Part shown: piece after piece, positions 48,213 to 52,201 of the stretch
Numbering within the stretch: the first letter of the stretch is position 1
Layout: every line of letters starts with the position of its first letter
NCBI GenBank assembly: GCA_965205675.1
Contig: OZ242186.1
Span: 128,001-192,000, forward strand
Direction: 5' to 3'
DNA: 64,000 nucleotides
Source: Nitrosopumilus sp.
GTDB lineage: Archaea > Thermoproteota > Nitrososphaeria > Nitrososphaerales > Nitrosopumilaceae
Translations under genes and position numbers: made by a program
Notes under the pieces: model-generated
What the model was told of the DNA's origin: nothing
Seen by the model: only the letters and a program-made list of their open reading frames with translations
Databases searched by the model: none

Positions 48213-48875
48213 CTATTGAGTAGATATTTCTGCACTGCCAAATAAAACACCAAAGGCTTTACACCAAATCAATACTTTGTTGTATTTACTTAGATCTGTA
48301 TCATTTGGAATCTCATAGTTTTGATTGCCACTGTTTGCTTTGAGTGTACCTAAATTCACAAAGTCTGATGCATTATCATCAGTTGACAAGTAAACATACA
48401 AGTCTGGACCATTAGTTGATTTAAAATTCTCTAATCTTAGTATGGTACTGCTATCTTCTAATGGAATTGTAAATGCGTCTCCTTGTGCATCATGAATACC
48501 ATCACCAACACCAACAAATGTTCCTACATAAGACATTGGAATCTCATCTTCCATCATAGCATCATCTTCCATCATAGCATCATCTTCCATCATAGCATCA
48601 TCTTCCATCATAGCATCATCTTCCATCATAGCATCATCTTCCATCATAGCATCATCTTCCATCATAGCATCATCTTCCATCATAGCATCATCTTCCATCA
48701 TAGCATCATCATCTTGAGCTGTAATGGCATCTTTGTTTTTTATTTCAGATTGAATTATCGCACCAGGAGGTATTGCTTCATCAATACTTGATTCTGTAAA
48801 GTATGGAGATAATGCAAATGCTGAAACTGCACCTACAACTATTATAGCAATTGTAATTACTACAAATTTGTTCAT
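48213..48875 (-). CDS. DM13-domain protein with a Met-rich repeat linker
   Basis: GTFVG...HDAQG, LRLENF..NGPDLYVYL, LKANSGNQNY, VLIWCKAFGVLFG; start set at ATG 48875. Confidence 0.9.
   Translation of the reverse strand: MNKFVVITIAIIVVGAVSAFALSPYFTESSIDEAIPPGAIIQSEIKNKDAITAQDDDAMMEDDAMMEDDAMMEDDAMMEDDAMMEDDAMMEDDAMMEDDAMMEDDAMMEDEIPMSYVGTFVGVGDGIHDAQGDAFTIPLEDSSTILRLENFKSTNGPDLYVYLSTDDNASDFVNLGTLKANSGNQNYEIPNDTDLSKYNKVLIWCKAFGVLFGSAEISTQ
48544..48705 (-). repeat. 9 x 18-bp perfect tandem repeat encoding (DAMMED)9
   Basis: Plus-strand unit TCATCTTCCATCATAGCA. Confidence 0.97.
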
Positions 48876-48892
48876 GATAAAATGATACAGTT

Positions 48893-48906
48893 TTGGTATA
48901 TACCAA
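48893..48906. promoter_or_regulatory. Perfect 14-bp palindrome TTGGTATATACCAA over the expected TATA position of the DM13 gene
   Basis: 18-31 bp upstream of ATG 48875, in the divergent DM13/dedA spacer. Confidence 0.5.
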
Positions 48907-48997
48907 CTTTTCCAGTTTTGACCCCAATCTTTAGGCGTAAAATACCTGAATCTATTCATCGTAAGGTAGTTTAATACGATTTCATTGCCAGAATCTA

Positions 48998-49525
48998 ATG
49001 GAACTTTTTGATTCTTTCTTGATATGGATTGCAAATTTTTTAGGAGACCATCTCTATGAAGGAATTTTTCTAGCAGCGTTACTTGAAACTATAGTTCCAC
49101 CAATTCCAACACTTGCAATATTCCCAACTGCGGGATTTTTAGCATCTCAGCAAGGCATCACAATATTTGGATTAATTCCCATGATAATTCTTGGCGCAAT
49201 TGGTGCTACAATTGGAACATCTGCAATTTATCTAATCGCATTAAAATTTGGACGAGTTGTTTTGTTACGTTATCTAAAGAATATAAAAATAAATGAAAAA
49301 AAATTAGAACGAGTTGAAGTTTGGTTTGAAAAATATGGTGACAGGGCAGTATTTTTAGGAAGGATGGTTCCAGTAATGAGAGAAATGATTTCAATTCCTG
49401 CAGGATTGTTAAAAATGAAAATTCCTAAATTTGTATTATATACATTTGCAGGTTCTTGTGTTTGGTCTTCTGCAACAATTTTGTCTGGATATTATTTTAG
49501 CGAGGTTTTAGGGCTTGTGCCATAG
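48998..49525 (+). CDS. DedA family membrane protein
   Basis: LETIVPPIP, AGFLA, WFEKYG..AVFLGRMVPVMR.MISIPAG. Confidence 0.92.
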   Translation: MELFDSFLIWIANFLGDHLYEGIFLAALLETIVPPIPTLAIFPTAGFLASQQGITIFGLIPMIILGAIGATIGTSAIYLIALKFGRVVLLRYLKNIKINEKKLERVEVWFEKYGDRAVFLGRMVPVMREMISIPAGLLKMKIPKFVLYTFAGSCVWSSATILSGYYFSEVLGLVP

Positions 49526-49973: not shown

Positions 49974-50479
49974 TAAATTTGAACATCATATCAAAATTAC
50001 TTTAATACAAGATTAAAATGTTTATTAGAATATAGATCTCATCTACAAATTAACAACATGTGTTCAAATCTGTTAAAATTTGAATATTAAATATTCTTTG
50101 AGAGTTTATTTCGAATCTAATTTAATCTGTTTCATTATTCATCTCTATCTTATGATCTAAAACTAAAATACAAAGTTACATTGAAGTTCAAATTTAATTT
50201 ACAACGTACAAAAAACTGCGTATTGTGATGTACAAGAAATACTGTGTTTTTAGATTACTAACAATTAGATGGGTTGTGCAATTACAGGTAAAACTTAACC
50301 TTTCATTGTAATTGATTTTAAAAATGATATTGATTGTATTGTAGATAAAATTATTAAAAATGTATGAAAATGGAAAAATATTCAACTATCTGAAAAAGAT
50401 AGATCAGATACAAAAATAACTGAATAATAAAATCGATCTGTTGAAAACCGCTACTAAAACATATATCTATGTGAAATCT

Positions 50480-50690
50480 TTAAAAACATTTGCACTCTTT
50501 TGCAACACATGAGAATGGCTACCGCTCGAGATGATCCCATTCATTTTCAAAAGATGAAACCGGACACATATCTATTCGAGGATCTCCCTCAGTACCATTC
50601 TTCATCCATTTATCAGAACCATGCCGCAGTTACAAAACGAGGATCTCCCTCAATATGTTTAACGAGGATTATAGTTCTGATCATAATGTT
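50480..50690 (-). ncRNA. Putative bridge/seek RNA of the IS110 element
   Basis: Two stems (50612-19/50674-81 and 50553-58/50601-06), each closing an internal loop capped by the same 15-mer hairpin; loop strands match the flanks and element ends. Confidence 0.75.
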
Positions 50691-50693
50691 TCA

Positions 50694-51803
50694 TTATGCA
50701 TTTTTGATGCACTGGTAAAATGTCATGTTGTTTTTTAACATCCAGTAAATTATTCTCAACAGTTTGGATGCTGCTGCCACTGCAGCTTTTGATGTCCCCC
50801 TCTTTTTTGCAAGACGTTTGTAAAAATTTGTAATGGTGCTGTTTTTTGCATATCTTACATGAGAATGTACTGCCTCCACCAGAACCCAGCGTAACATGCT
50901 ACTTCCTCTTCTTGTTATGGAACCATGGCGTATGGTGTCAGCTGAGTTTCTCACCGATGGTACAATTCCTGCATATGAACACAGTTTGTGAGAATCTGAA
51001 AATCTTTCGATATTGTCAATTTCAGAGGATATGGTTAATGCAGTGAATCTTCCAACACCAGGTATTGATTCTAAGAGTTGTGCGTTAGAACCATGTTTTA
51101 GAGCATCCTTGATTCTCATGTCTGACTCTGCGATTCTATCATTGATTGATATTATCATCTTGAGATATCCATCTATTCGATAGTCATCTAATCCCAACAG
51201 TTTGTGCACATATGAATCAGAAAATGCAGTTCCTGGTATCTTGATTGCATTTTGTAAGGTTATACTGTGAATCAAATTTTTCATCCTTGTCCTGTTGCGG
51301 ACTAGTTTGGTTCTATATCTCACCAGTTGTCTTGTTTGCACGGTATCTTTTTCTGGTACATGACAAGATGAGATGTATCCTCCTCTTAGCAAATCTGCCA
51401 AGATGTGAGCATCAATCTTGTCAGTTTTTTTCTTTGCTGCTGCAATTGCTTTTGTGTGATATGGGTTTGATAGTATTACATCAAATCCTAGTTCGTCTCG
51501 CAGAAACCTAAACACGCCATACCAGACAGATGATGATTCCATTACACATTTTGAGTTTTTTGGGATTGCAGAAAATACTTTTTTGATATCCTCTCTGGTG
51601 TTTGTAATTTTTTCATTGAATAATGTATGTCCTTTATCATCCATTGTTTCGACCTGTAAGAATTCTTTGTGCAAATCAATTCCGACATAGGTCATGGGTT
51701 TTGTCTTTCTAGTCCTAATGATTTTCTTTGGTTTTTTCTTGGAGGTGTATCTTTTAGAAACTATAGAATCAGCAGTACCATCTAAATTTCGTTGTTTATT
51801 CAC
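50694..51803 (-). CDS. IS110-family DEDD recombinase/transposase, intact
   Basis: VGIDLHK (D), VMESS (E), KKTDKIDA (D, D), SIPGVG HhH, YAGIVPSVRNS catalytic Ser, G..ITRRGS..LRW; start GTG 51803 or ATG 51695. Confidence 0.96.
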   Translation of the reverse strand: MNKQRNLDGTADSIVSKRYTSKKKPKKIIRTRKTKPMTYVGIDLHKEFLQVETMDDKGHTLFNEKITNTREDIKKVFSAIPKNSKCVMESSSVWYGVFRFLRDELGFDVILSNPYHTKAIAAAKKKTDKIDAHILADLLRGGYISSCHVPEKDTVQTRQLVRYRTKLVRNRTRMKNLIHSITLQNAIKIPGTAFSDSYVHKLLGLDDYRIDGYLKMIISINDRIAESDMRIKDALKHGSNAQLLESIPGVGRFTALTISSEIDNIERFSDSHKLCSYAGIVPSVRNSADTIRHGSITRRGSSMLRWVLVEAVHSHVRYAKNSTITNFYKRLAKKRGTSKAAVAAASKLLRIIYWMLKNNMTFYQCIKNA

Positions 51804-51924
51804 ATATGGTTACACTAGAATACCAAAAAAATACTCTTCTCATGCGTGTGACATGTAATTTGGGATCATCAATATCAGTAAAAGTATTAGAATGCTCAAA
51901 AATCGATTTCCTAGAAATCATCTG

Positions 51925-52042
51925 TAAAACTAAAGCAGAAATGAATTTGATGGATTTAAAAGAGATGACAAGCATGAAAATACATGCTGTCACAAATGAT
52001 AATGGATTGCCAGTACCAATACCTGTTGAATTTAGCAAATAA
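51925..52042 (+). pseudogene. IS5-family transposase internal remnant
   Basis: FDGFKR [frameshift] MTSMKIHAVTNDNGLPV resembles the G(Y/F)DGxK..GxKIHxxVDxxGLP DDE segment. Confidence 0.6.
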
Positions 52043-52201
52043 AACATGATTTTTTCAGTTAAAGCTAGATTTTCTAGTCATGTGGCAAAATCTACGTCTT
52101 TCTGAGATTCAAGTCCTACATGTAAATCTCAAATCCCAATTTCTGCACCACTTTGATTTCTGTGAATGATTAATAATAAGAAAATCTTCAGCAAACCAGT
52201 T

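Follow-up and report, generated by a model that had tools for sequence, protein, structure and literature searches.

A probable IS1111-type element with a bridge RNA in a Nitrosopumilus-like ammonia oxidiser

The window, a stretch of 64,000 nucleotides from a Nitrosopumilus sp. contig, very probably contains a recently active IS1111-type element of the IS110 family, in which the gene for a DEDD/Ser recombinase is followed by a bridge (seek) RNA of ~140 nt. Comparison of sequences across copies and families established the anatomy of the element and the position of its core, the conserved catalytic residues, covariation within the RNA stems and covariation of the guides with flanks and, less clearly for the 5′ donor guide, with element ends. 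The original prediction of an IS110/IS1111 element with a 3′ non-coding RNA carrying target- and donor-binding loops is supported by the hypervariable guides, by how they covary with flanks and ends, by changes in the stems and by the order of the guides.

Bridge or seek RNA recombinases were described from bacteria in 2024 (PMC11187229, PMC11208160), and a preprint records 662 archaeal IS110 recombinases in 2,835 genomes (10.1101/2024.06.21.599552). Going by titles and abstract openings, the literature on IS110 in Nitrosopumilus and on archaeal or Thaumarchaeota bridge RNA held no description of guide RNAs in ammonia oxidisers that we could find; the supplementary tables of Durrant et al. may already list related archaeal elements. 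The element is a new archaeal example of a known bridge-RNA system and not a new kind of system, and it leaves the picture of how such systems work unchanged.

Recombinase, element ends and core

The element, termed family A, lies on the minus strand at 50466–51810 (1345 bp without the core). The genome carries four copies with 99–100% identity and differing flanks; identity ends at 50466/51810, and the exact ends were set by empty-site comparisons. Subterminal inverted repeats of 8 bp, TATGTGAA on the left (51799–51806) and TTCACATA on the right (50468–50475; both read on the transposase strand), begin 4 and 2 nt inward from the ends. A non-coding stretch of 228 nt, which contains the RNA scaffold, runs from the stop codon to the tip of the right end (RE), versus 7 nt ahead of the start codon. 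The host genome encodes an archaeal amoA (386 bits), in agreement with the ammonia-oxidising archaeon proposed as host.

The recombinase ORF (50694–51803, minus strand, 369 aa) matched PF01548 (DEDD_Tnp_IS110; E 2.7e-28, 99.1 bits) and PF02371 (Transposase_20; E 2.7e-23, 82.6 bits), both above the curated cut-offs. Residues D43, E89, D128, D131 and S287 align with D11, E60, D102, D105 and S241 of IS621 (the chain numbering of 8wt6 is +2); together with the Pfam domains, this alignment bears out the intact DEDD and Ser recombinase of the original prediction. The only solved relatives were IS621 (8wt6; E 6.5e-12 over 326 residues) and ISCro4 (9t56). The start codon, a GTG, falls inside the left subterminal inverted repeat at 7 nt from the tip of the element, and the ORF is open from the corresponding GTG in most sister families.

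Orthologous empty sites of the window copy and of copies L003 and L002 were not found among up to 60 genomes of the genus, and a genome-wide pattern search for empty sites of families A and B returned only chance-like matches in this AT-rich genome. Because the copy flanks are unconserved or part of other repeats, empty-site work on these copies was limited to paralogous or homologous uninterrupted sites. Three independent comparisons fit a TA core, at 50464–50465 on the RE side and 51811–51812 on the side of the left end (LE). At nine paralogous uninterrupted sites (one in the same genome, eight in relatives), 4 nt separate AAAACA from CACTAGAATA, versus 5 in the empty site of the original prediction; the true empty site of family C is the intact left end of family B; and an uninterrupted homologue (L062) of the site of L002 and L004/5 reads AACACA-AA-CAT.

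The original prediction had instead cut the element at a single shared T (50464/51810), giving an element of 50465–51809, an empty target ...CATA-T-TACAC and a joint ...ATGG-T-ATCTATG. All four loop strands of the RNA do match flanks or ends as it proposed, but with a TA core the lengths shrink slightly: target-left from 9 to 8 contiguous positions (9/10 across the loop strand), target-right from 5 to 4, after which come two handshake bases, and donor-left from 6 to 5, with donor-right unchanged at 7. The longer target-left and donor-left matches in the window copy speak for the single T, as does the 5′ donor guide of families A and B, which fits a joint one T shorter at 6/7 positions. However, the target that it requires is one nucleotide longer than all nine paralogous uninterrupted sites (9/9) and likewise than the empty site of family C, which has the same left end; the L062 homologue also contradicts it, and copy L002 has A rather than T at the proposed core position of its left junction. 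We consider the single T very unlikely and, on the three empty-site comparisons, a mis-parse of the TA core, which made the predicted empty target one base too long and displaced the ends by one base at the right junction.

A one-base core placed elsewhere is a more serious contender, if still an unlikely one: sharing of one base alone, the T in the transposase-strand TA (A 50465 and A 51812 on the plus strand), might suffice for crossover, leaving a core of effectively 1 nt. LE junctions read TA in 45/45 cases; RE junctions across all families (n = 46) read TA in 40, TG in 4 and TT in 2, and those of the L066 family (14 copies) read TT in 6 and TG in 7. The variant base always lies on the RE side, although a 2-nt heteroduplex resolved by replication should yield either side, and an uninterrupted target copy in L078 has just the T in common with both junctions. 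Against this, the overlap at the window copy and in family C is TA or ATA, and for that reason one-base and two-base cores are indistinguishable there; in every family UA stands at the core position of both 3′ RNA strands, as a 2-nt core predicts; and just one uninterrupted target was found in which the second base is not A. With the core taken as TA, the 5′ target strand spans 0–2 core bases, varying by family, and the IS621 rule that the core lies within all four guide pairings does not hold here. An AT core with the left end at ATGTGAA, suggested by tandem joints between families C and B, was rejected, as it needs six extra bases at the window copy's site compared with 9/9 paralogues.

RNA scaffold

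The scaffold (50549–50684, minus strand; covariance-model match of 122.6 bits) occupies ~140 nt immediately 3′ of the recombinase stop codon and has two internal loops, target first and donor second, each between a basal stem and a UGRGR...YCYCG hairpin. The 5′ arm of the outer stem of the target domain (50674–50681) pairs with 50612–50619, with both-side changes in 3/7 pairs of helix 1. The basal stem of the target loop joins CCUCG (50663–50667) to UGCGG (50624–50628); pair 21–85 of helix 2 is U-A in 16 rows, U.G in 10 and C-G in 8. Hairpins formed by two copies of the 15-mer CGAGGATCTCCCTCA cap the target loop (50638–50652) and the donor loop (50577–50591). Both copies of the 15-mer were recovered where the original prediction had placed them, and the fold reproduced its minus-strand hairpin UGAGG-GAGAU-CCUCG, with U.G as the closing pair. 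Its identical caps hold for family A but not as a general feature, as families B and C have two differing caps.

The complementarity proposed between 50612–50619 and 50674–50681, and between 50601–50606 and 50553–50558, was confirmed. The latter pairing had been taken to close the donor loop, but it competes with a conserved basal stem, GGAUG (50603–50607) with UGUCC (50562–50566), and neither is preferred. In this conserved stem (helix 4), pairing reaches 97.7% and all changes are one-sided; the alternative has 4–8 bp and shifts in register among families. A U4 tract 3′ of the donor domain (50549–50552), conserved as CAUCUUUUGA, is a possible archaeal terminator and RNA 3′ end.

The covariance model found 52 scaffold matches in 69 sources and 29 in the element's own genome, with matches also in other Nitrosopumilaceae. 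In the alignment used for the pair counts, itself fitted to the model, 98.7% of cells are paired, compared with 35–45% when partners are slid, and 10/27 stem pairs show compensatory (both-side) changes. A two-loop structure is conserved in homologous elements, in line with the original prediction. The scaffold did not turn up beside the six most distant relatives examined (four bacterial, one Thermoplasmatales archaeon and one unclassified MAG), and a permissive Rfam scan of 50200–52100 gave five matches, every one far under the gathering score.

Direct repeats in IS ends often bind transposases, and the 15-mers and their surroundings could act at the DNA level, with the recombinase binding to them in the right end, or could terminate the recombinase mRNA; the flank matches would then be due to chance or target homology, and there would be no guide RNA. 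The sequences are short and AT-rich, and single-sequence folds are modestly above shuffles (z −2.1 and −2.3; 4/200 shuffles each), both of which suit such an account. We nevertheless give it hardly any credence: pairing is strand-specific, with U.G and G.U pairs retained on the minus strand only, the stems carry compensatory changes, and it is the loop strands, not the repeats, that vary and track the flanks of their own family.

Target and donor guides

The 5′ target guide UUAAACAUAU (50653–50662, minus strand) has 9/10 identity to plus-strand positions 50455–50464. The 3′ target strand UUUUG-UA-AC (50629–50637, minus strand), comprising guide, core pairing and two handshake bases, is complementary to plus-strand 51809–51814; in all families this strand terminates in UA-AC, UA-AU or UA-AA. 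Loop-1 strands are hypervariable, with an entropy of 1.15 and 1.48 bits compared with 0.56 for the remaining scaffold, and at least 15 different versions of the loop-1 guides occur on one conserved scaffold.

Against its own RE flank, the 5′ target guide scored a mean of 7.89/10 (46 copies, 15 families), compared with 4.93 in 601 cross comparisons, of which one reached 9/10 or more. The 3′ target guide, with five variable nucleotides, scored 3.58 against its own flank and 1.51 against other flanks (45 copies, 12 families). The observed mean was reached in 0/20000 family permutations for the 5′ guide, and the 3′ guide likewise gave 0/20000 permutations. These results support the covariation that the original prediction had envisaged, of the target loop strands with both target flanks, each element's own. 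In the window copy alone, the 5′ target guide is the sole guide clearly beyond chance; individual matches are indeed short and AT-rich, as had been cautioned, and the weight rests on the comparison across families.

Family A′ (79% amino acid identity) keeps the 3′ guide and loop 2 unchanged and differs at 4/10 positions of the 5′ guide, and its flank changes along with the altered guide, giving a 9-nt match. The L066 family, left out of the 5′ guide statistics by the RE search pattern, was compared by eye: 12 of its 14 copies have a perfect 9-nt match, one has a single mismatch and one has no match. Families differ by as much as 2 nt in the register between 5′ target guide and core, and there is a 1-nt difference inside L066. 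The 3′ target guide of family A matches at just 1–3/5 variable positions, and copy L003 sits in a poor target, with a 7/10 match at another offset.

In the donor loop, the 5′ guide AUGGU (50594–50598, minus strand) is identical to the element end at plus-strand 51806–51810, and the 3′ strand A-AUAGA-UA-UGUGU (50564–50576, minus strand; guide, core and handshake) is complementary to plus-strand 50463–50470. The 3′ donor strand, AUAGA or AUGGA, tracks the RE end, ATAGA or ATGGA, in 44/46 rows. The 5′ guide reads AUGG where the end is CCAT, in 15 rows, and AUAG where it is CTAT, in 28 rows, with 2 exceptions. It comprises 4–5 nt in two states, and apart from the exceptions its covariation comes down to a single event that separates two clades. 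The 5′ donor strand leaves the core uncovered, reading AC or AU where TA is expected.

By analogy with published work on IS621 and IS1111 elements, the RNA would be produced and bound by the recombinase, the element would pass through a circular intermediate, and strand exchange would proceed in the order worked out there. Loop 1 would read the target. Its 5′ strand (50653–50662) has the plus-strand sequence left of the insertion point and would therefore pair with the opposite strand, and its 3′ strand (50631–50637) would pair with the plus strand on the right side of the insertion point, including the core; for bases 50629–50630, pairing with the donor end would have to await strand exchange, as a handshake. 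Loop 2 would read the joined element ends, AUGGU one end and AUAGA-UA the other, with handshake bases that match the preferred target. The bases after both right guides fit the exchanged partner, as predicted, in the geometry of IS621. Target and joined ends have a TA in common, where exchange would take place, and each junction would keep one TA.

The natural guide variants suggest that the element may be programmable. They also make up a natural test set: one scaffold with at least 15 target guides and their insertion sites, along with chimeric combinations of target and donor modules and one element directed at its own relatives. Such a set could serve to learn the pairing rules of IS1111-type systems, including register, tolerance for the second core base and handshake length. 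Further uses are the annotation of IS-rich Nitrosopumilus genomes and mesophilic archaeal recombinases as candidates for testing.

Relation to known systems, proposed circle junction and family C

Published descriptions of the IS1111 seekRNA elements ISEc11, ISPa11 and ISKpn4 (Siddiquee 2024, PMC11187229; Durrant 2024, PMC11208160) likewise give a DEDD/Ser recombinase, a long downstream non-coding region with the RNA, subterminal inverted repeats, site-specific insertion without long duplication, and natural reprogramming. The order of the guides is the same: IS1111 seekRNAs carry the top-strand match on the 5′ side and the bottom-strand match on the 3′ side (PMC11187229), and here, in the orientation of the transposase, the 5′ guide complements the top strand at the RE flank and the 3′ guide reads in the same sense as the LE flank. 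The archaeal (Nitrosopumilaceae) host, a scaffold without an Rfam family and a start codon inside the left repeat set the present element apart. Its 8-bp repeats fall below the 'usually 11-13' bp of PMC11187229 and inside the 7–17 bp of PMC11208160, and beyond the repeats it extends by 4 and 2 nt plus TA, compared with the terminal extensions of 7 (or 6) and 3 published for IS1111.

The bridge RNA of IS621, of the IS110 group (Durrant 2024; Hiraizumi 2024, PMC11208158), also has two internal loops, target then donor, each with a 5′ strand that has the sense of one DNA strand and a 3′ strand that pairs with the other. It shares the 2-nt core read by the 3′ strands and at least two handshake bases after the right guides, and the catalytic residues of the two proteins align despite weak overall similarity (E 6.5e-12, 326 residues). 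In contrast to IS621, the RNA here lies 3′ and not 5′ of the gene, it has the opposite orientation with respect to the element, TA and not CT forms the core, and the core is covered only in part by the 5′ target strand and not by the 5′ donor strand.

A TATA-like box, TTTTTAAA on the transposase strand (50479–50486, minus strand), lies near the RE tip and occurs at the same place in 21/21 distinct RE tails; a promoter function is our inference. As the GTG is only 7 nt from the element tip, too little space is left in an integrated copy for its own promoter. In the circle junction that joining the ends at TA would create, the 3′ edge of the box falls 22–23 nt upstream of the LE GTG. Archaeal TATA boxes usually lie at about −30 to −23, the span that the box would occupy. 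No natural RE-TA-LE tandem was present in the genome or the examined loci. No RNA run was listed among the public runs containing the locus, and their assembled contigs included neither a circle-junction joint nor a sequence across an empty site.

Insertions of family C occupy one fixed position within the left end of families B and A, its sisters; in the left end of family C itself the guided bases are TGTGCC, not TGTGAA. From these arrangements we tentatively propose, at somewhat less than even confidence, an archaeal circle-junction promoter, with the excised circle as the main source of a leaderless transcript for recombinase and guide RNA, together with a re-aiming of the family C guides towards the left end of related elements, by which family C would parasitise its sisters. 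Targeting of one mobile element's end by another is also described for IS4321/IS5075, IS1111-family elements that insert in the terminal repeats of Tn21-family transposons (reference 10 of PMC11208160); unlike those, family C targets close relatives of the invader.

A recombinase of a known kind and its sister families

The recombinase ORF at 50694-51803 on the minus strand encodes 369 aa, in which the two Pfam domains that mark the IS110 family are both present. Its only solved-structure relatives are IS621 (E 6.5e-12) and ISCro4 (E 4e-12), both bridge recombinases, and in an alignment with IS621 the catalytic positions of the IS621 structure paper (PMC11208158) are occupied by D43, E89, D128, D131 and S287. 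All defining features of the IS110 family and IS1111 group that we tested were present. Bridge RNAs have been predicted for 93% of ISfinder IS1111 entries (Durrant et al., PMC11208160), and Siddiquee et al. (PMC11187229) describe the IS1111 family as abundant in bacteria and archaea. Given these published IS1111 bridge/seek RNAs, the window element adds to a known kind of system and is not another kind. Among the papers listed by our literature searches, we found no description of such RNAs in ammonia oxidisers. The host genome is one 2.01-Mb contig with archaeal amoA, and the nearest relatives of the recombinase come from Nitrosopumilus, Cenarchaeum and other Nitrosopumilaceae MAGs; the description of the host as an ammonia-oxidising archaeon therefore holds.

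Three further host-genome copies share 99-100% identity with the window element (family A), at 1157627, 482515 and 1402198 (remainder at 1409825), and a fragment lies at 954407. In every copy the stretch of identity has the same end points, and the flanks differ from one copy to the next. The fourth copy, that at 1402198, is interrupted at 1403286-1409825 by an insert of ~6.5 kb. Using tblastn, we detected ~25 additional, more distant IS110 genes, which group into sister families B (~60% amino acid identity, 10 copies) and C (~57%, 10 copies), whose end motifs and 3' non-coding RNA region are built as in family A. In most B copies (for example, 202555-203900) a short deletion around codon 60 leaves an ORF of 315 aa, and these copies are likely defective judging from this reading frame; in copies 616022 and 1108267 ('b') the ORF is 373 aa. 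In the family C recombinase gene (928904-929972 and other C copies), the reading frame has to shift at a GGAGGG stretch close to the residues that align with query positions 125-142. The site differs among copies and may reflect either an inactivating indel or programmed frameshifting.

Element ends and a TA core

Read in the direction of the transposase gene, the copies all have the form flank-TA-AC(C/T)ATATGTG ... TTCACAT(A/G)GA-TA-flank. The original prediction had cut the element at a single shared T (50464/51810), giving the empty target CATA-T-TACAC. Three independent comparisons with uninterrupted sites agree instead on a crossover within TA. On this basis the element spans 50466-51810 and is bordered by TA at 50464-65 and 51811-12; a cut of the predicted type makes the empty site one base too long in all three.

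The first comparison used the right flank of the window copy, part of a conserved sequence that has one host-genome paralogue and of which eight relatives carry homologues. These nine uninterrupted sites all run leftwards into sequence resembling the left flank of the window copy, with 4 bases between AAAACA and CACTAGAATA, the spacing predicted by a TA core; the earlier empty site predicts 5. The second used family C, which shares its left end with family A and is in every case inserted into the left end of a B or A element; left ends of B and A that remain intact thus serve as its true empty sites. Junctions compared with these overlap by ATA, so the C left end begins ACC or AACC, and a parse of the earlier type makes the site one base too long. 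In the third, the gene struck by family A copies L002 and L004/5 has an uninterrupted homologue reading AACACA-AA-CAT. Removing the element with a TA core yields AACACA-TA-CAT and AACACA-AA-CTT for these two copies; the earlier cut yields one base more.

Among 58 distinct element copies extracted, the right-end pattern located the end in 46 and the left-end pattern in 45; copies without a match, mostly of the L066 family (right end CTCACAT) or truncated, were left out. Left junctions had TA in 45/45 cases, and right junctions had TA in 40/46, TG in 4/46 and TT in 2/46. In the L066 family, right junctions had TT in 6 of 14 copies and TG in 7. One uninterrupted L066-type target has T alone in common with both junctions, and the L002 right junction retains AA, as in its uninterrupted homologue. 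These two cases suggest that a mismatch at the second core base is tolerated, in which event the target's base would remain on the right-end side. A very short core, as first proposed, may thus hold in changed form, the single shared base then being plus-strand A at 50465 and 51812 and not T at 50464 and 51810.

A TATA-like box is present in 21/21 distinct right-end tails. Once the ends are joined as inferred, the 3' edge of the box would fall 22-23 nt upstream of a GTG, 7 nt inside the left end, at which the recombinase ORF opens; the frame is open from this GTG in most families. Hexamers of this type occupy 0.24% of positions per strand, for a pattern selected after data inspection. By analogy with the junction promoter of bacterial elements (PMC11187229), the box may be its archaeal equivalent. 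A literature search on such a promoter yielded nothing relevant. Between the RNA and the box, the right ends of both A and B elements contain a conserved block (AGCG..AGCCAT; window 50487-50545).

Predicted bridge RNA scaffold and guides

The repeated 15-mer (50577-50591 and 50638-50652) lies where it was claimed and forms a 5-bp minus-strand hairpin with a U.G closing pair. From 31 sequences and a structure specified by the analyst, we built a covariance model that gave 52 matches in 69 sources. It gave 29 matches in the host genome, and matched 9/150 other genomes of the order across four families. No match lay next to the six remotest relatives retrieved, of which four are bacterial, one belongs to Thermoplasmatales and one is unclassified. 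Across 35 distinct rows, 98.7% of stem cells were paired, compared with 35-45% with slid partners, and two-sided changes occurred in 10 of 27 stem pairs, figures biased toward the model to which the alignment had been fitted. RNAalifold on a plain MAFFT alignment returned the same outer stem, both caps and 7 compensatory pairs. The proposed outer stem (50612-19/50674-81) is supported. For the donor loop, the proposed GAUGAA/UUCAUC stem competes with a conserved GGAUG/UGUCC, and neither is preferred.

The most variable scaffold columns were the 10 bases 5' of the first cap (1.15 bits) and 5 variable bases 3' (1.48), against 0.56 elsewhere; 34 rows held 20 distinct 5' guides and 14 distinct 3' guides. 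When reverse-complemented, the 5' guide matched the element's own right flank at a mean of 7.89/10, compared with 4.93 for guides of other families (excluding family pairs with >7/10 guide bases in common and allowing three registers throughout), a mean reached by 0/20000 family permutations. The 3' guide matched the left flank at 3.58/5 versus 1.51, again with 0/20000 permutations as high. As predicted, then, the target-loop strands track each element's own flanks. The family A 3' guide matches weakly (1-3 of 5 bases), and copies L003, L109 and L107 sit in poor targets. In the L066 family, inspected by eye, a 9-nt guide match was perfect in 12/14 copies, had one mismatch in one and was absent in one. 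At window 50655, contigs of public runs X1, X4 and X5 and three copies (L068, L069 and L072) of another Nitrosopumilus MAG have G instead of A, so that their 5' target guide reads AAACACAU and not AAACAUAU; the C form suits L002 and L004 better (2/4 host-genome sites), and the U form suits the window site.

In the donor loop, the 3' strand (AUAGA/AUGGA) corresponds to the element end (ATAGA/ATGGA) in 44/46 rows and the 5' strand (AUGG/AUAG) to CCAT/CTAT in 43/45. Both strands appear to follow the ends as proposed, although the 5' strand is short and does not read the core. In IS621 the core lies in all four guides, which is not the case here. The 3' strands of both loops have UA at the core and then bases fitting the exchanged partner, as in the handshake arrangement of IS621 (PMC11208158). 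The guide order, top-strand match 5' of bottom-strand match, is that of IS1111 and opposite to IS110 (PMC11187229).

Insertion contexts

Family C occupies one fixed point in the left end of family B (8 cases) or A (one fragment, 954408), for example at G000:C1:928662-930000 in the host genome and at loci L006 and L007. Its target guides match the B/A left end (ATGTGAA and AACTA-TA); it is therefore an insertion sequence aimed at its own relatives. Nested C insertions exist (C63: ...ACTA-TA-ACCA-TA-ACCATATG). Chimeric elements L098 and L106, from a Nitrosopumilus MAG, combine a family C target domain and left end with a family A donor domain and right end, an arrangement that, read from sequence, shows the two RNA domains to be apparently exchangeable as modules.

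The right flank of the window copy (51811-51904, with ORF 51806-52042) covers the beginning of a gene (MRVTCNLGSS...) together with the sequence upstream. This flank has a paralogue at 1067451 and homologues of 71-82% identity in eight relatives; the element lies ~30 nt upstream of the ATG, probably inside that gene's promoter. The right flank of copy A483 (L003:2849-3640; host ~483863-484650) is the start of a different ~790-bp repeat (TACTCTCTAAC...), apparently another mobile element, with 4-5 copies in genome G052, 3 in G009 and 2 in G055. Elsewhere in the window, the minus-strand ORF 48213-49034 encodes nine tandem DDAMME repeats in a product predicted to be membrane-anchored.
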